Both the position numbers and the translations under genes were made by a program. A model generated the notes under the pieces. The model was not told the DNA's origin. It did no database searches and worked only from the letters and a program-made list of their open reading frames with translations. Shown in pieces: positions 579 through 45,113 of a DNA stretch of 64,000 bases. Origin of the DNA: Escherichia phage PE37; the sequence record NC_054929.1, one strand, 5' to 3'. Positions within the stretch are counted from its first letter, which is position 1; each line of letters starts with the position of its first letter.

Positions 579-1172
579 ATGAACACACTGAAGAAAATTG
601 TTGAGTTTATTCGCACTAAACTTGGTTCTGCTATGGCTAAAAATCTATCTGTTGAAGAGCAGTATACTGCCGCAGCAGCAAAATTGCTTGATAAAATTAA
701 AGATCTAAAAACTGCTTCTGTTAAATCTATTAATGAAGAAAAGCGTATTCGTGAACTTATTGTCGAAAAGAATAAGCAGGCCGAATCAAAAGAGCGTGAA
801 ATTCGCAAGCTCCTTTCGGAAGGTCAAGATGTAACAATGCATGCTAAACTTGGTTTACTATATCGTCGAACAGCTGAGCAGTTGACTACTAAAGCTGATG
901 GTTATGCTGAAATGCGAATTGAAATCGCCAAGAAAGTAGTTGAGTTAGATGATGCTCGCCAAGAACTTGCAGTTAAATTGGAATATATCCGTGAAACTCG
1001 TGCAGCGAATGCCCTTGGAATTAGTACTGCCGATGATGTAGTTGAAATTGCAGCGCTGACTAAGGTTGATATTGAAGATACTCTTGCTCGAGTTGAAACC
1101 TTTAACGGTAATATTTCTGGGGTTGAAACCACCTCTGCCGATGTTCAGGAATATATTAATTCTCTGAAATAA
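579..1172 (+). CDS. coiled-coil protein, PspA/IM30-like (e.6 position)
   Basis: ATG+SD; 197 aa helical, charge pattern resembling PspA/Vipp1 family. Confidence 0.6.
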
Positions 1173-1175
1173 TGA

Positions 1176-1199
1176 TAAGGGGCTTCGGCCCCTATTACT
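1176..1199 (+). terminator. UUCG-tetraloop hairpin (GGGGCTTCGGCCCC)
   Basis: perfect GC stem with UUCG loop; weak U tract. Confidence 0.5.
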
Positions 1200-1213
1200 T
1201 GGAGTAAGTAGGA

Positions 1214-1822
1214 ATGAAAATGCAAAGTGATTTCAATTCAATGTTTGAAGAGTTCCAAAGACAGGTTGATGTTCCAGACCAATTATTAAATGCTCTTAAA
1301 CGTATGGCAGAAGGACGTAATTATTATTGGGGTTCTTCATATGAAACTGTTGAAAGTCTTTCTGGAAGATTTTCTAGAGGTAAAAAGTCTTTAATACGTC
1401 CTGGAATACTTATTAACAGTATTGAATCAATTCATTTATTAACATGCGATTTTGACGTTGAATTTACTGATTTTGTTTCTCCTGAATGGACGGTCTGTTA
1501 TTTAAACGACGATTATGATTATCTTGGCGTTTATAGTTTAAGTGATGCATGGTTTAAACGTAATTTACAAAAGTCAAATTTATTCTATATTGATACTACT
1601 GTAAAATTTCAGGGCAAGAAATATTTCTTTACTCTTATAGTTGACTCTGAAACAAAATATGAAAATAAACGTATTCTTAGTAAAAAGAATATCTTAACTA
1701 CTGTCGATGATCTTTTTGATAAATTCGTAGAAAATCCCAATTTTGAAAGCGATTTATTATTAGAAAAATTTGTTAAGGAATGTAGAGAATATGTCAAAAC
1801 CATCACTATACCTTCCAAGTAA
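1214..1822 (+). CDS. hypothetical protein (e.5 position)
   Basis: ATG+SD GGAG; 202 aa. Confidence 0.65.
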   Translation: MKMQSDFNSMFEEFQRQVDVPDQLLNALKRMAEGRNYYWGSSYETVESLSGRFSRGKKSLIRPGILINSIESIHLLTCDFDVEFTDFVSPEWTVCYLNDDYDYLGVYSLSDAWFKRNLQKSNLFYIDTTVKFQGKKYFFTLIVDSETKYENKRILSKKNILTTVDDLFDKFVENPNFESDLLLEKFVKECREYVKTITIPSK

Positions 1823-2183
1823 ACCGTTGAAGTATGAATTAAAGCGTCAGATAATTTCTACTGATGTGTTAATAGGTCCTGTGGTAGCTGTATCATTTGT
1901 GATTCTGCTGATTGCTGGAATGGTTATAGACGTTATGACTGATATTGGATCTAATACAATATTTGCGTCAACGCTAATTCTTCCATTGGTAGTTCCGCTT
2001 TTATTAGTACCTATAAATTGGATAGGATATTGGTATCAAGGAAGACACTATCGTAAACGTGTACGTGATTGGAAAGCCCAGTGCAAAAAGATTAAAAAAG
2101 AACATCAGCTTAAACTTGCTGCGTATGAATTTGATGAAATTATGAAATTTGTTAAGGAATCACGATGCAAAAGCCAAAACTAA
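1791..2183 (+). CDS. membrane protein, e.x paralog family
   Basis: in-frame ATG at 1791; hydrophobic segments; C-terminal motif shared with neighbours. Confidence 0.55.
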   Translation: MSKPSLYLPSKPLKYELKRQIISTDVLIGPVVAVSFVILLIAGMVIDVMTDIGSNTIFASTLILPLVVPLLLVPINWIGYWYQGRHYRKRVRDWKAQCKKIKKEHQLKLAAYEFDEIMKFVKESRCKSQN

Positions 2184-2527
2184 ATAAAGCCAAATATTCG
2201 TTTCCAGAGGCACTATTAATTCTTGCCGTATCAGCATTTACAGCTCTTGCGGGTAGTCTTATTGGATTATTAATTGACTGTTTTATTTTAAACATCGACG
2301 GCACAGTAATTATAACAGAGGTTTGGAGTGAACTTCGTTATACTATAGCGATTTCATTATTTTCATTCTTTGGTACCATGTTATATTTTCATTATGATAA
2401 TTTTAAAATAAATTGGCAAAGAAAAAAAGATTACAAAATACAATTAAAAGAATATAATAGCTACATGTCTTATATTGAAAAAGAATCAATGGAAGAGTTT
2501 GTGAGTGATTGTAGGAAAATTAAATGA
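2165..2527 (+). CDS. membrane protein, e.x paralog family
   Basis: ATG; 2-3 TM segments; C-terminal ...DCRKIK. Confidence 0.6.
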   Translation: MQKPKLNKAKYSFPEALLILAVSAFTALAGSLIGLLIDCFILNIDGTVIITEVWSELRYTIAISLFSFFGTMLYFHYDNFKINWQRKKDYKIQLKEYNSYMSYIEKESMEEFVSDCRKIK

Positions 2528-3012
2528 TTTTAAAAACTCGCTGGTATGATTTAGATGACGGGGATGATGGCATTTCAGTTAATAGAGTTGACTGGAATGG
2601 CTGTTCCGAAGATATGAAAAATTTGCTGATTAGGGAGTTTAGAATGGGATATCAACCAGTTAAGCCATCTACTGCAACAGATGATAAATTCGTGTGTATT
2701 CATAATGGTCGCGCTAAATTAACGAACGCTGATTGGTTCACAGATAAAATTATGATTCTGTGGTATATTATTAGTCTTCCTGTGACATCATTCGTATTTT
2801 ACTTTTTTATAAAAAATCCAATGGACAGAATAGGAGATTGGATTCTTTTAACCATACTTGTTAATATTTTTACTGCAGCAATATTATCTGGGATATGGTA
2901 CACGTTCATTGAAATGCCATGGCGTTTACGCAGACAACAAAAGATTTTTGATGAAAAGAAATATACCCAAAATTTAAATAGCTTTATCACTGAATGCAGG
3001 AAATTAAAATGA
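2524..3012 (+). CDS. membrane protein, e.x paralog family (e.2 position)
   Basis: ATGA overlap with upstream gene; TM segments; C-terminal ...ECRKLK. Confidence 0.6.
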   Translation: MILKTRWYDLDDGDDGISVNRVDWNGCSEDMKNLLIREFRMGYQPVKPSTATDDKFVCIHNGRAKLTNADWFTDKIMILWYIISLPVTSFVFYFFIKNPMDRIGDWILLTILVNIFTAAILSGIWYTFIEMPWRLRRQQKIFDEKKYTQNLNSFITECRKLK

Positions 3013-3449
3013 AAACATTATCAGTTGGTATTATCTTTATGACAGAAGATAAAGATTTATTTATGGGTCGGGTTACTGGTTCTCGTAAGCCTGGAATGAT
3101 GGCACATCGCTGGGATATTCCAAAGGGCCGTGTAGAAAATTCTGATTTAAGCGCATTAGATGCAGCACGAAGAGAATGTTTAGAAGAGACTGGTTTTAGC
3201 AATTATAATCCAGACCTTCTAGAAGACCTAGGTGTATTTAAATATTCTAGTAATAAAGACTTACAGTTATTTTATTATACGATTCCAGTAGAGCATGAGA
3301 TGTTCAGAAATTGCCATTGCGAGTCTTATTTTGAAAATAAAGATGGTGTTATGATTCCAGAGATGGACGCTTTTGCTCTTATTCCTCATACTCAGTGGCA
3401 ATATGTGATGGGTCCTTCACTTTACCGAATAATGAACAACCTCTTTTAA
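3009..3449 (+). CDS. nudE: Nudix hydrolase NudE
   Basis: Nudix box G-x5-E-x7-REC-x-EETG; immediately upstream of e as in T4; start 3009 vs 2994 uncertain. Confidence 0.75.
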   Translation: MKTLSVGIIFMTEDKDLFMGRVTGSRKPGMMAHRWDIPKGRVENSDLSALDAARRECLEETGFSNYNPDLLEDLGVFKYSSNKDLQLFYYTIPVEHEMFRNCHCESYFENKDGVMIPEMDAFALIPHTQWQYVMGPSLYRIMNNLF

Positions 3450-4020
<571 letters not shown>

Positions 4021-4039
4021 AGTTACTTGGAGGGATAAA

Positions 4040-4456
4040 ATGACTCGTATTAATTTGACTTTAGTATCTGAACTTGCTGATCAACATTTAATCGCAGAAT
4101 ACCGTGAATTGCCACGTGTTTTTGGTATAGTTCGTAAACATGTGGCAAATGGTAAACGGGTTAAAGATTTTAAAATATCTTCCGAGTTTATTTTAGGTTC
4201 TGGTCATGTTACGTTCTTTTACGATAAGTTAGAATTTTTGCGAAAGCGTCAATCAGACATTATAACGGAATGCTTAAAACGCGGGTTTAGTATAAAAGAT
4301 ACTGAAGTTCCTGACATCGGCGATATTCCAGCAGAATGGAAAAATGATTATAATCCATGCAAATCAGCTATTAAATTGAGTCAACAACGACTCAATGAAA
4401 AAATTTTAATGAAGCCACACTGGTACAAGTATTACGGCAAAAATATTTACATTTAA
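4040..4456 (+). CDS. denV: endonuclease V, pyrimidine-dimer DNA glycosylase
   Basis: 138 aa, [17 protein letters not shown]..., matches T4 endo V. Confidence 0.95.
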
Positions 4457-30824: not shown

Positions 30825-32027
30825 ATGAAAGTATGTATTTTTATGGCTCGAGGTCTTGAAGGTTGTGGTGTAACAAAATTCTCACTCGAGCAACGTGATT
30901 GGTTTATTAAAAATGGTCATGAAGTGACTTTGGTTTATGCTAAAGATAAATCATTTACTCGTAACTGTGCACATGATTATAAATCATTTTCAATTCCGGT
31001 TTTATTGGCAAAAGAATACGATAAAACACTTAAGCTGGTAAATGATTGTGATATTCTAATTATCAATTCAGTTCCTGCTACTTCAGTTGAAGAAGACACT
31101 ATTAATAACTATAAAAAAATTATTGATAACATTAAACCTTCTGTTCGTGTTGTAGTTTATCAACATGACCATTCTTCTCTTTCTTTGCGCCGAAATTTGG
31201 GATTAGAAGAAACTATTCGTCGAGCTGATGTTATTTTTAGCCATTCTGATAATGGTGATTTTAATAAAGTTCTGATGAAAGAGTGGTATCCAGAAACTGT
31301 TTCTCTGTTTGATGATATTGAAGAAGCACCGACCGTATATAACTTTCAGCCTCCTATGGATATTGCGAAGGTTCGGTCAACTTACTGGAAAGATGTTTCT
31401 GAAATTAACATGAATATCAACCGTTGGATTGGTCGTACGACTACATGGAAAGGTTTTTATCAGATGTTTGATTTTCATGAAAAACATCTTAAACCTGCAG
31501 GACTAAGTACTGTTATGGAAGGTCTGGAACGTTCTCCAGCGTTCATTCCTATTAAAGAAAAAGGAATTCCATACGAGTATTATCGTCTTCATCAAGTAGA
31601 CCAAATTAAAATTGCTCCTAATTTGCCAACGCAAATTCTTGACCGTTATGTAAATAGCGAAATGCTTGAACGCATGAGTAAATCCGGATTTGGTTATCAA
31701 TTGAGTAAGTTGGATAAAAAATATCTACAACGTTCTTTAGAATATACTCATCTCGAGCTTGGTGCATGTGGAACAATTCCGGTATTTTGGAAATCTACTG
31801 GCGAAAATTTAAAATTCCGTGTTGATAATACTCCTTTGACCTCGCATGATAGCGGTATCATTTGGTTTGATGAAAATGACATGGAATCAACATTTGAACG
31901 TATTAAAGAACTGTCATCTGACCGAGCTCTTTATGACCGTGAGCGAGAAAAAGCATATGAATTTTTGTATCAGCATCAAGATTCAAGCTTCTGCTTTAAA
32001 GAACAGTTTGACATTATTACAAAATAA
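30825..32027 (+). CDS. agt: DNA alpha-glucosyltransferase
   Basis: 400 aa, ...CIFMARGLEGCGVTKFSLEQRDWFIKNGHEV..., matches T4 alpha-gt. Confidence 0.93.
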   Translation: MKVCIFMARGLEGCGVTKFSLEQRDWFIKNGHEVTLVYAKDKSFTRNCAHDYKSFSIPVLLAKEYDKTLKLVNDCDILIINSVPATSVEEDTINNYKKIIDNIKPSVRVVVYQHDHSSLSLRRNLGLEETIRRADVIFSHSDNGDFNKVLMKEWYPETVSLFDDIEEAPTVYNFQPPMDIAKVRSTYWKDVSEINMNINRWIGRTTTWKGFYQMFDFHEKHLKPAGLSTVMEGLERSPAFIPIKEKGIPYEYYRLHQVDQIKIAPNLPTQILDRYVNSEMLERMSKSGFGYQLSKLDKKYLQRSLEYTHLELGACGTIPVFWKSTGENLKFRVDNTPLTSHDSGIIWFDENDMESTFERIKELSSDRALYDREREKAYEFLYQHQDSSFCFKEQFDIITK

Positions 32028-38981: not shown

Positions 38982-41678
38982 ATGAAAGAATTTTATATCT
39001 CTATTGAAACAGTCGGAAATAACATTGTTGAACGTTATATTGATGAAAACGGAAAGGAACGTACTCGTGAAGTAGAATATCTTCCAACTATGTTTAGGCA
39101 TTGTAAGGAAGAGTCAAAATACAAAGACATCTATGGTAAAAATTGTGCTCCTCAAAAATTTCCATCAATGAAAGATGCTCGAGATTGGATGAAACGAATG
39201 GAAGACATCGGTCTCGAAGCTCTCGGTATGAACGATTTTAAACTCGCTTATATCAGTGATACATATGGTTCAGAAATTGTTTATGACCGAAAATTTGTTC
39301 GTGTAGCTAACTGTGACATTGAGGTTACTGGTGATAAATTTCCTGACCCAATGAAAGCTGAATATGAAATTGATGCTATCACTCATTACGATTCAATTGA
39401 CGATCGTTTTTATGTTTTCGACCTTTTGAATTCAATGTATGGTTCAGTATCAAAATGGGATGCAAAGTTAGCTGCTAAGCTTGACTGTGAAGGTGGTGAT
39501 GAAGTTCCTCAAGAAATTCTTGACCGAGTAATTTATATGCCATTCGATAATGAGCGTGATATGCTCATGGAATATATTAATCTTTGGGAACAGAAACGAC
39601 CTGCTATTTTTACCGGTTGGAATATTGAGGGATTTGACGTTCCGTATATCATGAATCGCGTTAAAATGGTTCTCGGTGAACGTAGTATGAAACGCTTCTC
39701 TCCAATCGGTCGAGTAAAATCTAAATTAATTCAAAATATGTACGGTAGCAAAGAAATTTATTCTATTGATGGCGTATCTATTCTTGATTATTTAGATTTG
39801 TACAAGAAATTCGCTTTTACTAATTTGCCGTCATTCTCTTTGGAATCAGTTGCTCAACATGAAACCAAAAAAGGTAAATTACCATACGACGGTCCTATTA
39901 ATAAACTTCGTGAGACTAATCATCAACGATACATTAGTTATAACATCATTGACGTAGAATCAGTTCAAGCAATTGATAAAATTCGCGGGTTTATCGATCT
40001 AGTTTTAAGTATGTCTTATTACGCTAAAATGCCTTTTTCCGGTGTAATGAGTCCTATTAAAACTTGGGATGCTATTATTTTTAACTCATTGAAAGGTGAA
40101 CATAAGGTTATTCCTCAACAAGGTTCGCACGTTAAACAGAGTTTTCCGGGTGCATTTGTATTTGAACCTAAACCAATTGCTCGTCGATATATTATGAGTT
40201 TTGACTTGACGTCTCTGTATCCGAGCATTATTCGTCAGGTTAACATTAGTCCTGAAACTATTCGTGGTCAGTTTAAAGTTCATCCAATTCATGAATATAT
40301 CGCAGGAACAGCTCCTAAACCGAGTGATGAATATTCTTGTTCTCCGAATGGATGGATGTATGATAAGCATCAAGAAGGTATCATTCCAAAGGAAATCGCT
40401 AAAGTATTTTTCCAGCGTAAAGACTGGAAAAAGAAAATGTTCGCTGAAGAAATGAATGCCGAAGCTATTAAAAAGATTATTATGAAAGGCGCAGGGTCTT
40501 GTTCAACTAAACCTGAAGTTGAACGATATGTTAAGTTCAGTGATGATTTCTTAAATGAACTATCGAATTATACTGAATCTGTTCTCAATAGTTTGATTGA
40601 AGAATGTGAAAAAGCAGCTACACTTGCTAATACAAATCAGCTGAACCGTAAAATTCTTATTAACAGTCTTTATGGTGCTCTTGGTAATATTCATTTCCGT
40701 TACTATGATTTGCGAAATGCTACTGCTATCACAATTTTCGGCCAAGTTGGTATTCAGTGGATTGCTCGTAAAATTAATGAATACCTGAATAAGGTGTGTG
40801 GAACTAATGGCGAAGATTTCATCGCAGCAGGTGATACTGATTCGGTATATGTTTGTGTAGATAAAGTTATTGAAAAAGTAGGTCTTGACCGCTTTAAAGA
40901 ACAAAATGATTTAGTTGAATTCATGAATCAGTTCGGTAAGAAAAAGATGGAACCTATGATTGATGTTGCATATCGTGAGTTATGTGATTATATGAATAAC
41001 CGCGAGCATCTGATGCATATGGACCGTGAAGCTATTTCTTGTCCTCCGCTCGGTTCAAAGGGTGTTGGTGGATTTTGGAAAGCGAAAAAACGTTATGCTC
41101 TGAACGTTTATGATATGGAAGATAAGCGATTTGCTGAACCGCATCTAAAAATCATGGGTATGGAAACTCAGCAAAGTTCAACACCAAAAGCAGTACAAGA
41201 AGCTCTTGAAGAAAGTATTCGTCGTATTCTTCAGGAAGGTGAAGAGTCTGTCCAAGAATATTACAAGAACTTCGAGAAAGAATATCGTCAACTTGACTAT
41301 AAAGTTATTGCTGAAGTAAAAACTGCGAACGATATAGCGAAATATGATGATAAAGGTTGGCCAGGGTTTAAATGCCCGTTCCATATTCGCGGTGTGCTAA
41401 CTTATCGTCGAGCTGTTAGCGGTCTGGGTGTAGCTCCAATTTTGGATGGAAATAAAGTAATGGTTCTTCCATTACGTGAAGGAAATCCATTTGGCGACAA
41501 GTGCATTGCTTGGCCGTCGGGTACGGAACTTCCAAAAGAAATTCGTTCTGATGTACTGTCTTGGATTGACTACTCAACTTTGTTCCAAAAATCGTTTGTT
41601 AAACCGCTTGCGGGCATGTGTGAATCGGCTGGTATGGACTATGAAGAAAAAGCTTCGTTAGACTTCCTGTTTGGCTGA
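38982..41678 (+). CDS. 43: DNA polymerase gp43 (family B, with 3'-5' exonuclease)
   Basis: 898 aa uninterrupted; exonuclease and polymerase motifs (DTDS, YGDTDS-type); matches T4 gp43. Confidence 0.95.
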   Translation: MKEFYISIETVGNNIVERYIDENGKERTREVEYLPTMFRHCKEESKYKDIYGKNCAPQKFPSMKDARDWMKRMEDIGLEALGMNDFKLAYISDTYGSEIVYDRKFVRVANCDIEVTGDKFPDPMKAEYEIDAITHYDSIDDRFYVFDLLNSMYGSVSKWDAKLAAKLDCEGGDEVPQEILDRVIYMPFDNERDMLMEYINLWEQKRPAIFTGWNIEGFDVPYIMNRVKMVLGERSMKRFSPIGRVKSKLIQNMYGSKEIYSIDGVSILDYLDLYKKFAFTNLPSFSLESVAQHETKKGKLPYDGPINKLRETNHQRYISYNIIDVESVQAIDKIRGFIDLVLSMSYYAKMPFSGVMSPIKTWDAIIFNSLKGEHKVIPQQGSHVKQSFPGAFVFEPKPIARRYIMSFDLTSLYPSIIRQVNISPETIRGQFKVHPIHEYIAGTAPKPSDEYSCSPNGWMYDKHQEGIIPKEIAKVFFQRKDWKKKMFAEEMNAEAIKKIIMKGAGSCSTKPEVERYVKFSDDFLNELSNYTESVLNSLIEECEKAATLANTNQLNRKILINSLYGALGNIHFRYYDLRNATAITIFGQVGIQWIARKINEYLNKVCGTNGEDFIAAGDTDSVYVCVDKVIEKVGLDRFKEQNDLVEFMNQFGKKKMEPMIDVAYRELCDYMNNREHLMHMDREAISCPPLGSKGVGGFWKAKKRYALNVYDMEDKRFAEPHLKIMGMETQQSSTPKAVQEALEESIRRILQEGEESVQEYYKNFEKEYRQLDYKVIAEVKTANDIAKYDDKGWPGFKCPFHIRGVLTYRRAVSGLGVAPILDGNKVMVLPLREGNPFGDKCIAWPSGTELPKEIRSDVLSWIDYSTLFQKSFVKPLAGMCESAGMDYEEKASLDFLFG

Positions 41679-42496: not shown

Positions 42497-42748
42497 ATGG
42501 AAACTTTAGTAGCAGGTTCAATTTTTATGGTTTTAGTTTCAGGTGTGTTGGCTATTATTATATACATGCTTCCATGGTTTATCGCCTTGATGCGTGGGTC
42601 AAAATCGACAGTAGGAATCTTTTTCACATCTTTACTGTTTAACTGGTCAATTATTGGTTGGTTTATTACATTTATTTGGTCAATTGCGGGTGAAACTAAA
42701 AAGTCTGCACAACCAAATCAGGTAATTATCATCAGAGAGAAGGAATGA
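42497..42748 (+). CDS. imm: superinfection immunity protein Imm
   Basis: 83-aa two-TM membrane protein immediately upstream of gene 42 as in T4. Confidence 0.75.
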   Translation: METLVAGSIFMVLVSGVLAIIIYMLPWFIALMRGSKSTVGIFFTSLLFNWSIIGWFITFIWSIAGETKKSAQPNQVIIIREKE

Positions 42749-42894
42749 AAAGCAAAATTATAGCAGTGTTGCTTTTAATCTTGATGATTATAATAAGTAT
42801 ATACTATAGTGTAACGGTTCCTCTTATGATTCCAACTATTATTTTAGGTTGGGGTTTATTACTGTTACAAGTTAAATATGAATGTATCAATTGA
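42745..42894 (+). CDS. small membrane peptide (49 aa)
   Basis: ATGA overlap with imm; hydrophobic; not in ORF track. Confidence 0.4.
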   Translation: MKSKIIAVLLLILMIIISIYYSVTVPLMIPTIILGWGLLLLQVKYECIN

Positions 42895-42901
42895 GGTTTA
42901 A

Positions 42902-43642
42902 ATGATTAGTGACTCTATGACAGTTGAAGAAATCCGTCTTCATTTGGGGCTTGCATTAAAAGAAAAAGATTTCGTAGTTGATAAAACCGGTGTTAAAACT
43001 ATTGAAATTATTGGCGCATCATTTGTAGCAGATGAACCGTTTATTTTTGGCGCTCTTAATGATGAATACATTCAGCGTGAACTTGAATGGTATAAATCTA
43101 AGAGCTTGTTTGTTAAAGATATTCCAGGTGAAACACCAAAGATTTGGCAGCAGGTAGCATCTTCTAAAGGCGAAATTAACTCGAATTATGGTTGGGCTAT
43201 TTGGTCAGAAGATAACTATGCCCAGTATGATATGTGTTTAGCTGAACTTGGTCAAAATCCTGATTCTCGACGTGGTATCATGATTTATACTCGTCCATCC
43301 ATGCAATTTGACTACAATAAAGATGGTATGTCAGATTTCATGTGTACGAATACCGTACAATACTTGATTCGTGACAAGAAAATCAATGCGGTTGTTAACA
43401 TGAGAAGCAATGATTGCTGGGCAGGCTATCGTAATGATTATGCATGGCAAAAATACGTATTAGATAAATTAGTATCTGATTTGAATGCAGGCGACCCATC
43501 GCGGCAATATAAAGCAGGTTCTATTATATGGAACGTTGGAAGTCTTCATGTGTACGAAAATCAGTTTTATTTAGTTGACCATTGGTGGAACACTGGTGAA
43601 ACTCATATTGCTAAAAAGGATTATACTGGAAAATGGAAGTAA
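42902..43642 (+). CDS. 42: dCMP hydroxymethylase gp42
   Basis: 246 aa; thymidylate-synthase-like fold; size and position match T4 gp42. Confidence 0.88.
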   Translation: MISDSMTVEEIRLHLGLALKEKDFVVDKTGVKTIEIIGASFVADEPFIFGALNDEYIQRELEWYKSKSLFVKDIPGETPKIWQQVASSKGEINSNYGWAIWSEDNYAQYDMCLAELGQNPDSRRGIMIYTRPSMQFDYNKDGMSDFMCTNTVQYLIRDKKINAVVNMRSNDCWAGYRNDYAWQKYVLDKLVSDLNAGDPSRQYKAGSIIWNVGSLHVYENQFYLVDHWWNTGETHIAKKDYTGKWK

Positions 43643-44274
43643 ATGCGCCACATGTTTATAAGTATAAACATCCTAAAACTAAAAAGTGGTATATAGGAAG
43701 TCATGATGGTCACAACCCGAATTATGATGGTTCGGGTGTAGTTTGGCAACATGCTAAAAAGAAATATGGAATAAAATCCTTTAATAAAGAAATATTATAT
43801 GAAGGACCAATGTTTAGACAGGTTGAAGAAATTATTTTAACTTGTTTAGATGCTGCTAATTGTCCGGATTCATATAATTTAAAGAATGAAGCATGGGGAG
43901 GAAGTTTTCCAGGCAAATTAAATGGAATGTACGGTAAAAAACTATCTCCAGAAGAAAGATATAAGTGCGGAAATGCCTTTCGTGGAATCAAGCGTCCTGA
44001 TCATTCTAAAAGAATGAAAGGCGAAGGTAATCCAATGTATGGTAAAAATGAGCAAGCATATGGAATTATAAATCGAGCAAAGGAAAATTCTGGTAAAACT
44101 TATGAAGAAATTTTTGGCGCAGAAAAAGCTAAAATAATTAAAGAAACGATGTCTAAAAATCGTAAAGGAAAACCTCATAATTTGATAGAAAAAATATGTC
44201 CGTATTGCGGACTAAAAGGACGTGGGCCAAATATGACAAGATACCATTTTGACAAATGTAAGGCACTTAAATGA
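43633..44274 (+). CDS. GIY-YIG homing endonuclease, Seg-like (free-standing)
   Basis: N-terminal YKYKHPKTKKWYIGS (GIY-YIG variant), NUMOD3-like repeats, C-terminal CPYC zinc finger. Confidence 0.7.
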   Translation: MEVNAPHVYKYKHPKTKKWYIGSHDGHNPNYDGSGVVWQHAKKKYGIKSFNKEILYEGPMFRQVEEIILTCLDAANCPDSYNLKNEAWGGSFPGKLNGMYGKKLSPEERYKCGNAFRGIKRPDHSKRMKGEGNPMYGKNEQAYGIINRAKENSGKTYEEIFGAEKAKIIKETMSKNRKGKPHNLIEKICPYCGLKGRGPNMTRYHFDKCKALK

Positions 44275-45113
44275 TTCAATTCGTAATTCCAAGCTATCAA
44301 CGCGTAGGGGCAGTTTCTGCCCTTGATATGTTTCCGACTGATTATGAACCTCATATTGTAGTACGTGAACATGAAGAAAAAGCTTATTATGACGCTTACG
44401 GGTCTAGGGCTAAAATTATAACTATTCCTGATGATGTTAATGGAATTGCTGGTACTCGTAAAGCAATTACTGATATGTATGCAGGTCAACGAATCTGGAT
44501 GATTGATGATGATACTACTATTCGTATGAGTTCAATGCGAAAAAGAGATGATCGTCGTTGTGTGGATAAAGTCAATCAATTGACTCGTGAACAGTTCTAT
44601 GAATTGATTCAATATGTTGAGGATGCCATGGATTGTGGGTATTATCATGGCCATGCTCGTCTACCTATTTTTAAAATTACTTCATCTTGGGGTAATTATC
44701 GTGAAAATTCATATGGATTCACGAATACATGGTATGACCTCGGAAAACTTACGACAGAACAAATTGGGTATGGAAAAATTGATTTGTGCGAAGATATGTA
44801 TGCATTTCTCAATTTAATTAATCAAGGTTATCCGCATTTGGCCTTGTTCAAATATCTGGTTGTATCTGGAAAAGCACAAGCTCCTGGCGGGTGCAGTTCA
44901 ATTCGTAGTAATTCTAAACATAATAGAGCGCTTGAACAAATCAATAGAGAATTTCCAGAGCAAGCTCGTTGGAAAACTTCTAATATTGAAAAACGAAAAT
45001 CGTTGGGTGAAGAAGATGAGCCATTAAAGGTTCTTCGTATGTGTGTTTCGCGCAAAGAAAAATCAGAAGCATTTCATAAGTTTAATGCTATTCATCCGAT
45101 AGCAGTTGATTAA
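44271..45113 (+). CDS. GT-A-like glycosyltransferase at the beta-gt locus
   Basis: DxD-type motif WMIDDDTT; 280 aa; not similar to T4 beta-gt as recalled. Confidence 0.5.
   Translation: MIQFVIPSYQRVGAVSALDMFPTDYEPHIVVREHEEKAYYDAYGSRAKIITIPDDVNGIAGTRKAITDMYAGQRIWMIDDDTTIRMSSMRKRDDRRCVDKVNQLTREQFYELIQYVEDAMDCGYYHGHARLPIFKITSSWGNYRENSYGFTNTWYDLGKLTTEQIGYGKIDLCEDMYAFLNLINQGYPHLALFKYLVVSGKAQAPGGCSSIRSNSKHNRALEQINREFPEQARWKTSNIEKRKSLGEEDEPLKVLRMCVSRKEKSEAFHKFNAIHPIAVD

Follow-up and report, generated by a model that had tools for sequence, protein, structure and literature searches.

A T2/T6-type glucosyltransferase gene and a predicted Seg-like homing endonuclease gene linked to a distinct gene 42 haplotype in a T4-like phage genome segment

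In phage T4, the interval between gene 42 and uvsX is occupied by the beta-glucosyltransferase gene b-gt and by segA (order, 42/b-gt/segA/uvsX). The same interval of Escherichia phage PE37 (NC_054929.1) holds a predicted GIY-YIG endonuclease gene of 213 amino acids (aa) and a 280-aa glycosyltransferase gene, ba-gt. The locus raises the questions of which sugar the glycosyltransferase adds to the phage DNA and of whether the endonuclease drives exchange of the glycosyltransferase cassette between phages. The 64,000-nucleotide (nt) stretch analyzed here (the window) is a segment of a Tequatrovirus (T4-like) genome in the orientation opposite to that of the standard T4 map. We consider it probable that the locus combines an already known ba-gt with an unrelated Seg-like homing endonuclease that targets gene 42. 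The genes on which this reading turns are as follows.

42902-43642, + strand: gene 42, dCMP hydroxymethylase of the thymidylate-synthase family (Pfam PF00303, E = 4.6e-15)

43633-44274, + strand: gene for the predicted 213-aa free-standing Seg-like GIY-YIG homing endonuclease (PHROG 314, SegA similarity)

44271-45113, + strand: ba-gt, beta-glucosyl-HMC-alpha-glucosyltransferase, TAGT family, GT-A fold, 280 aa

45191-46372, + strand: uvsX, right-hand boundary of the variable interval (Pfam T4_UVSX_C and RecA)

30825-32027, + strand: alpha-gt (a-gt), alpha-glucosyltransferase (Pfam PF11440, E = 1.8e-237; PHROG 2888)

An original prediction for this DNA had described a 213-aa open reading frame (ORF) overlapping the gene 42 stop codon and a 280-aa ORF behind it, in the interval where T4 carries b-gt and segA. 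These positions are correct, and the T4 gene order confirms the comparison. The 213-aa ORF shares its first 10 nt with gene 42, whose TAA stop codon lies at 43640-43642, and the TGA of the 213-aa ORF overlaps the ATG of ba-gt as ATGA. Because each has hundreds of conserved homologues, the two ORFs are not chance ORFs.

The sequence of the 280-aa protein makes it all but certain that it is a T2/T6-type ba-gt in both identity and function. It shares 278 of its 280 residues with the T2 beta-glucosyl-HMC-alpha-glucosyltransferase and is 258/261 identical to the annotated T6 protein, and it matches PHROG 842, "beta-glucosyl-HMC-alpha-glucosyltransferase" (E = 6e-89), and Pfam PF20691, TAGT (38.9 bits; curated cutoff, 27.5). 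The T2/T6-type identity, which the original prediction had offered as a possibility, is thus borne out by BLASTP and by both family matches. The accompanying claim that the protein differs from T4 beta-gt also held: the check for a full-length alignment found no similarity, with the best BLASTP match to T4 b-gt at an E value of 2.2 over 8 residues and PF09198 unmatched. T4 b-gt was rejected as an identity for the protein on these two negative results. The predicted structure (AlphaFold2 model) has a GT-A-type fold with a DxD motif, in keeping with the glycosyltransferase fold that had been proposed; the model is of moderate quality, and the underlying alignment is shallow, the homologue search having returned 11 relatives. 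A sequence search of the PDB with ba-gt matched no solved structure, and NCBIfam has no model for it. The WMIDDDTT motif that had been pointed out is present at residues 76 to 83 (44496-44519), and its three aspartates do not vary.

44505-44513, + strand: ba-gt DxD motif, D79-D80-D81, invariant in the family alignment

The enzyme was found in 687 phage records of the phage database, and in 471 of these the identity is at least 90%. This half of the locus is already known, and its annotation is routine.

Alpha-gt and ba-gt are both encoded in the window, and the T2/T6 gene set for gentiobiosyl-hydroxymethylcytosine (gentiobiosyl-hmC) is complete. Ba-gt would add glucose in beta-1,6 linkage onto the alpha-glucosyl-hmC made by the alpha-gt of 30825-32027. 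Because the two enzymes are encoded together, the virion DNA should contain alpha-glucosyl-hmC and gentiobiosyl-hmC and no beta-glucosyl-hmC. Phages EL and BGP of the Durham collection encode an enzyme 97.5% identical to the ba-gt of the window, and alpha-5-gentiobiosyl-methyl-dC was found by liquid chromatography-mass spectrometry in the DNA of both (PMC13390438). The level of gentiobiosyl-hmC is given as 5% for T2 and 72% for T6 (PMC13390438).

Two features of the ba-gt sequence were observed in passing. In the T6 record MH550421 (3138-3980, minus strand), the ba-gt frame has a TAG stop at codon 10, directly after MIQFVIPSY, and the annotated 261-aa protein starts from M20, without the first beta-strand. 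The ba-gt of the window has Q10 at this codon, and T2 is identical up to codon 10. The stop is odd given the level reported for T6 and may reflect a stock mutation, suppression, or a sequencing error. In the window, a GC-rich hairpin (GGGGCAG-TTT-CTGCCCT) lies at 44305-44325, inside ba-gt codons 12 to 18. The stem also occurs in Klebsiella phages, where the loop differs; the folding z score of -1.66 is not significant, and the hairpin probably reflects coding constraint only.

The 213-aa ORF is intact, and its product is predicted to be a Seg-like GIY-YIG endonuclease. It matches PHROG 314 (homing endonuclease; E = 1.2e-30) and has 31% identity to T4 SegA over 167 aa (E = 4e-9). A search of 5.8 billion proteins retrieved 65 relatives, down to about 28% identity. 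Across 29 aligned relatives, Y9 of the GIY motif, Y20 and G22 of the YIG motif, the Y-x-GSG motif, N82, and the CCHC residues are conserved; 17 of the 29 match Pfam SegE_GIY-YIG (PF19835) or GIY-YIG (PF01541), and 19 match NUMOD3. In the PDB, a profile of the family matches 1LN0, the catalytic domain of I-TevI (E = 4e-4), and also 1MK0; I-TevI residues 3 to 95 are aligned, the E75 region pairing with an E-rich segment of the family and N90 with YN. The 213-aa protein alone returned noise only in the PDB search, so the family profile was needed to reach I-TevI. The Y-x-GSG/AKKKYG variant of the family is shared with T4 SegA, which is listed as an active endonuclease in a 2010 review (PMC2988022). 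The parts of the protein are as follows.

43651-43905, + strand: GIY-YIG catalytic domain, about aa 7 to 91 (Y9, Y20-I21-G22, Y31-x-G33-S34-G35, E65/E66, N82)

44005-44046, + strand: NUMOD3-like DNA-binding repeat, aa 125 to 138 (PF07460, subthreshold in the window protein)

44197-44259, + strand: C-terminal CCHC zinc-finger-like motif, C189/C192/H205/C209 (nearly invariant alignment columns)

The description of this protein as GIY-YIG/NUMOD3/zinc finger therefore stands for its first and last parts, the Seg-like GIY-YIG and CCHC residues being conserved. The NUMOD3 part is weaker in the window protein itself, with a match of 18.1 bits below the Pfam cutoff of 20.4. A match to TIGR01453 (NCBIfam; group I intron endonuclease) is also below cutoff (E = 1.8e-5). 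Orthology to SegA was rejected on the level of identity and on the gene-42-side location; a true SegA (98%) lies across ba-gt in phage PD112.

The endonuclease gene is an insertion polymorphism. It occurs at 95% identity or more in about 76 phage records, versus about 471 with ba-gt at 90% or more, and 11 records of Klebsiella phages hold a copy that is about 70% identical. It is missing in T2, T6, RB32, ECML-134, FriedrichZschokke, EL, and HY01, in which gene 42 and ba-gt overlap by ATGA. Broken copies were also seen. In Escherichia phage REP3, the endonuclease is frameshifted into two annotated ORFs (1601-1984 and 1981-2241), which point to decay of the copy or to an error in sequencing. In Klebsiella phage vB_KpnM_GF (MK421971, Jiaodavirus), a deletion at approximately 2490-2600 fuses gene 42 at about codon 214 (IIWNA) to the last approximately 30 codons of the endonuclease. 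The C-terminal 31 codons of gene 42, an essential gene, are thereby removed in a record labeled a partial genome; the deletion could be postbreak decay or an assembly artifact. Presence in some phages, absence from others, and broken copies make up the pattern of gain and decay that a selfish homing endonuclease gene is expected to leave.

What is new is that, in all of the endonuclease-bearing genomes examined, the 3'-terminal 240 nt of gene 42 form a distinct sequence. Seven Tequatroviruses with the endonuclease (plus phages: the window, ACG-C40, HY03, JK23, RPN226, REP3, and BF15) were compared with eight without it (minus phages: T2, T6, RB32, ECML-134, FriedrichZschokke, EL, HY01, and T4). 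All 32 fixed differences between the two groups fall in gene 42 nt 502 to 741; the first 500 nt of the gene have none, and neither does ba-gt. They cluster in two patches and in the last approximately 50 nt of the gene.

43403-43429, + strand: patch 1 of the endonuclease-linked gene 42 allele, gene nt 502 to 528 (VVFGF to CWAGY)

43555-43564, + strand: patch 2 of the same allele, gene nt 654 to 663 (SRH to ENQ)

The gene 42 allele of the window is matched at 95% or more by 83 phage records and at 80 to 90% by 421; the 83 matches are consistent with about 76 carriers and a few recombinants. The same gene 42 breakpoint and patches are found in two genera, Tequatrovirus and Jiaodavirus. Jiaodavirus KPN6, a plus phage whose endonuclease is 70% identical to that of the window, and pKp20, a minus phage, are 90 to 100% identical over gene 42 nt 1 to 480 and 67 to 75% identical thereafter. 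KPN6 has CWAGY and QNQ at the patches, pKp20 and Enterobacter phage CC31 have VVFG followed by Y or F and ERH, and Yersinia phage MHG19, with an endonuclease 65% identical to that of the window, has CWAGF and ENQ. The linked haplotype of 240 nt resembles a co-conversion tract.

Nested recombinants of the haplotype occur. SNUABM01 has patch 1 only and no endonuclease (SP21535 and LH2 match its allele at 95 to 97%), PD112 and CE1 have both patches and a minus-type junction without the endonuclease, and about 76 records have both patches and the endonuclease. By BLAST against approximately 550 records, no record was found that combines minus patch 1 with patch 2 or with the endonuclease. The query for this reciprocal class was a synthetic chimera of minus patch 1 with plus patch 2 and tail, and its best full-length match (91.8%) was to ordinary minus alleles among the same records. 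When IMG/VR was scanned for exact matches to the four patch combinations, only four contigs were recovered (one plus/plus, three minus/minus, and no chimeric), too few to inform. The polarity of the recombinants suggests that the endonuclease needs patch 1 alongside it, as would be expected if patch 1 were an immunity determinant or marked the break at which conversion tracts start.

In PD112 (1308-3557), both patches occur without the endonuclease, and a SegA 98% identical to that of T4 is encoded between ba-gt and uvsX; CE1 and CJY920 are arranged much like PD112. At least four configurations of the 42-uvsX interval exist within Tequatrovirus. In CC31 (767-3404), a TAGT homologue and a T4-type b-gt stand in tandem between 42 and uvsX, which may be the ancestral arrangement, with b-gt later retained in T4 and TAGT in T2/T6.

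The haplotype and its recombinants can be read as traces of homing. The endonuclease gene, inserted exactly at the 42/ba-gt junction, would be a selfish homing element whose product, in a mixed infection, cuts gene 42 of phages that lack the endonuclease. The cut would likely fall in or near the MRSND-VVF-G-FRND codons, about 215 to 240 bp upstream of the endonuclease gene. Repair from the endonuclease-bearing genome would then copy the 3' end of gene 42, often together with the endonuclease gene (intronless homing, marker exclusion). Patch 1 would be a candidate cleavage or immunity determinant at the left edge of the co-converted tract, and the altered gene 42 allele (CWAGY, ENQ) would shield the phage that carries the endonuclease. 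Nuclease activity, cleavage position, copying by repair, and immunity through the patches are what we infer from the comparisons above. A functional homing endonuclease that targets gene 42 appears fairly likely, and the placement of its cut at or near patch 1 is tentative, with chances slightly short of even.

The position of patch 1 has a counterpart in the T4 thymidylate synthase gene. The end of T4 td exon 1, CAACGCTCAGTAGATGTTTTCTTGGGT, encodes QRSVDVFLG, which is followed by LPFN, and it is the insertion site of the td intron. Patch 1 aligns to this site, gp42 reading MRSND, then VVF or CWA, and then G before FRND or YRND. Intron-encoded endonucleases cut within 25 bp of their insertion site. 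Free-standing T4 endonucleases typically cut hundreds of base pairs from their own genes, in conserved genes and usually in active-site-coding DNA (PMC2988022).

The genes around more distant homologues point to the same partner. In each of eight unrelated contigs with endonuclease homologues of 43 to 65% identity, a PF00303 gene lies directly upstream in the same orientation. The downstream neighbors vary among the eight loci (T4-type b-gt, dCMP deaminase with a family-A polymerase, a helicase, an IMPDH-like protein, an NTP-transferase, and unknown ORFs). Because the downstream neighbors differ and the PF00303 gene is constant, the constant partner is gene 42 or its relatives and not a glycosyltransferase. 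In two cases, MHG19 (1776-4246) and contig L028 (1697-4293), the homologue lies between a gene 42-like gene and a T4-type b-gt (PF09198).

A role for the endonuclease in exchange of this cassette between phages had been raised as a possibility in the original prediction, but the data point elsewhere. Such loci bear on the idea that the endonuclease drives the exchange of the whole glycosyltransferase cassette (b-gt/segA versus ba-gt) among T-even phages. If gene 42 were cut in a phage carrying another kind of transferase, only homology in 42 and uvsX could serve for the repair, so that the transferase would be co-converted. Homologues of the endonuclease stand beside b-gt in MHG19 and L028 and beside TAGT in the window and KPN6, and the interval is a mosaic (42/ba-gt, 42/homing endonuclease gene/ba-gt, 42/ba-gt/segA in PD112, 42/b-gt/segA in T4, and 42/TAGT/b-gt in CC31). 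However, ba-gt shows no fixed plus/minus differences in Tequatrovirus, the linked tract lies wholly upstream of it, and the constant neighbor of the family is a thymidylate-synthase-family gene rather than a transferase. Genomes of the T4 type with a-gt and b-gt are also rare (6 of 753; PMC13216743), so crosses of this kind leave little trace to study. Cassette exchange is thus mechanistically possible, with no positive evidence for it and with the endonuclease unlinked to ba-gt alleles, and we regard it as unlikely. A wider proposal combines the two lines, namely, an undescribed family of free-standing GIY-YIG enzymes specialized on thymidylate-synthase-fold genes (td-like genes and 42), which would cut the RS-x-D...G codons as I-TevI and I-BmoI do in td and thyA, with co-conversion reaching the b-gt/ba-gt cassettes; we consider this doubtful.

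Several observations weigh against a gene 42-targeting endonuclease or narrow what can be drawn from the locus. The window protein matches neither Pfam GIY-YIG model (PF01541 and PF19835) at an E value of 0.1 or less, and the loop that carries Arg27 in I-TevI is shortened in the family, with a 9-residue gap in the alignment, although the active T4 SegA has this variant too. Scans with consensus promoter and terminator patterns, with the T4 late promoter TATAAATA, and for a MotA box found no dedicated endonuclease promoter; expression is assumed to occur by read-through from gene 42 transcripts and translational coupling. A literature search found no paper naming or characterizing the 213-aa endonuclease and no cleavage or inheritance experiments with it. 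The argument from nested recombinants draws on only a few genomes, read from BLAST summaries. At the two patches, VFG-like residues and His are retained in four of the eight distant loci that encode an endonuclease, so the amino acid patches cannot be a general immunity rule. In 14 thymidylate-synthase-family proteins, WAG at RSND-xxx-G co-occurs perfectly with Q or N replacing the His of SLHxY-xx-H, and the co-variation of patches 1 and 2 could be structural coupling within the enzyme and not two nuclease determinants. On the side of the glycosyltransferase, the extent of gentiobiosylation in the phage of the window cannot be predicted, given the 5% of T2 and the 72% of T6 (PMC13390438).

The co-variation also lends itself to the explanation that the gene 42 patches are adaptive or compensatory changes of the enzyme and that the real cut is made at another position, such as the 42/ba-gt junction or a site within ba-gt. 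The perfect co-variation hints at such coupling, and the last 50 nt of gene 42 differ between the plus and minus groups as well. Yet PD112 has kept both patches next to a minus-type junction sequence, no genome combines the endonuclease with minus patch 1, and the divergence starts at patch 1 in two genera. We judge this explanation improbable. The profile results, in turn, are relevant to whether the 213-aa ORF is an inactive or decaying hitchhiking relic, with the gene 42 haplotype marking the descent of one Tequatrovirus clade. The absence of a direct Pfam GIY-YIG match, the subthreshold NUMOD3 match, and the lack of an aligned Arg27 equivalent would fit a relic, as would the frameshifted copy of REP3 and the remnant of the last approximately 30 codons in Klebsiella phage GF. 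Against this, the ORF is intact and 95 to 100% identical in 76 records, and 29 diverse relatives have conserved the catalytic Tyr, YIG, Glu, and Asn residues together with the zinc ligands. A second genus, whose endonuclease is only 70% identical, shows the same gene 42 breakpoint and patches, and the rest of gene 42 and ba-gt lack clade-specific differences, which argues against simple common descent. A relic is therefore quite unlikely, and a homing endonuclease directed at gene 42 remains our preferred reading.

The remaining genes around the locus are arranged as in the following lines.

38982-41678, + strand: DNA polymerase gp43 (ORF list)

between gp43 and gene 42, + strand: imm.1 and imm homologues (ORF list)

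42745-42894, + strand: 49-aa 42.1-like ORF (PHROG 3610)

after uvsX in the gene list, + strand: gene 40 and gene 41

Just ahead of gene 42, the 42.1-like ORF overlaps the end of imm, and relatives differ in annotating it (it is annotated as 42.1 in RB32).

For users of the phage, the ba-gt assignment indicates the DNA modification to be expected, which bears on its sensitivity to Brig1-type glycosylases, GmrSD/BrxU-type restriction, and CRISPR (PMC13216743, PMC13390438). The endonuclease is an uncharacterized Seg-like enzyme with a predicted target inside an essential, highly conserved gene for which putatively resistant natural alleles and natural recombinants exist. It offers a case for how free-standing homing endonucleases choose active-site-coding sequences and raises the question of whether GIY-YIG enzymes of the intron-encoded and of the free-standing kind converged on one thymidylate-synthase motif. 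If cassette exchange were true, a selfish nuclease would help to reshuffle the anti-restriction sugar code of phage DNA. Overall, the locus is mostly ordinary, consisting of a known enzyme in an arrangement present in dozens of sequenced phages plus an uncharacterized Seg-like member. The added value is modest and lies in the gene 42 target prediction and in the tracking of thymidylate-synthase-fold genes by the family.

Among known systems, T2 and T6 are closest on the side of the glycosyltransferase. Their ba-gt has the same slot right after gene 42, the same partner alpha-gt, a GT-A fold, and the invariant DDD; in T2, ba-gt overlaps gene 42 by ATGA, whereas an endonuclease gene stands between the two in the window. 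T4 b-gt occupies the syntenic 42-uvsX slot and likewise serves the modification of hmC DNA, and it has a GT-B fold in contrast to the GT-A fold of ba-gt (PMC13216743). The two enzymes have no sequence similarity, and the acceptor of b-gt is hmC, whereas that of ba-gt is alpha-glucosyl-hmC.

On the side of the endonuclease, the predicted cut in a conserved neighbor with co-conversion of the flank resembles T4 SegF, SegG, and MobE (PMC2988022), from which the 213-aa enzyme differs in its target gene and in having a mechanism that is predicted from sequence. It has the Seg-type variant (Y..YIG, Y-x-GSG, and AKKKYG) in common with T4 SegA and is, like it, free-standing and co-oriented in the same 42-uvsX interval. 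T4 SegA is a free-standing GIY-YIG endonuclease encoded between b-gt and uvsX, and it cuts uvsX. It differs in its insertion on the uvsX side rather than the gene 42 side, in lacking a C-terminal CCHC motif, and in its presumed target. I-TevI is intron encoded, whereas the 213-aa protein is free-standing behind gene 42, with a predicted cut more than 200 bp from its insertion point, a shortened Arg27 loop, and a different C-terminal DNA-binding region. With I-TevI and I-BmoI it shares the GIY-YIG domain and a host or target gene of the thymidylate-synthase fold, and patch 1 is homologous to the codons at the td insertion site.

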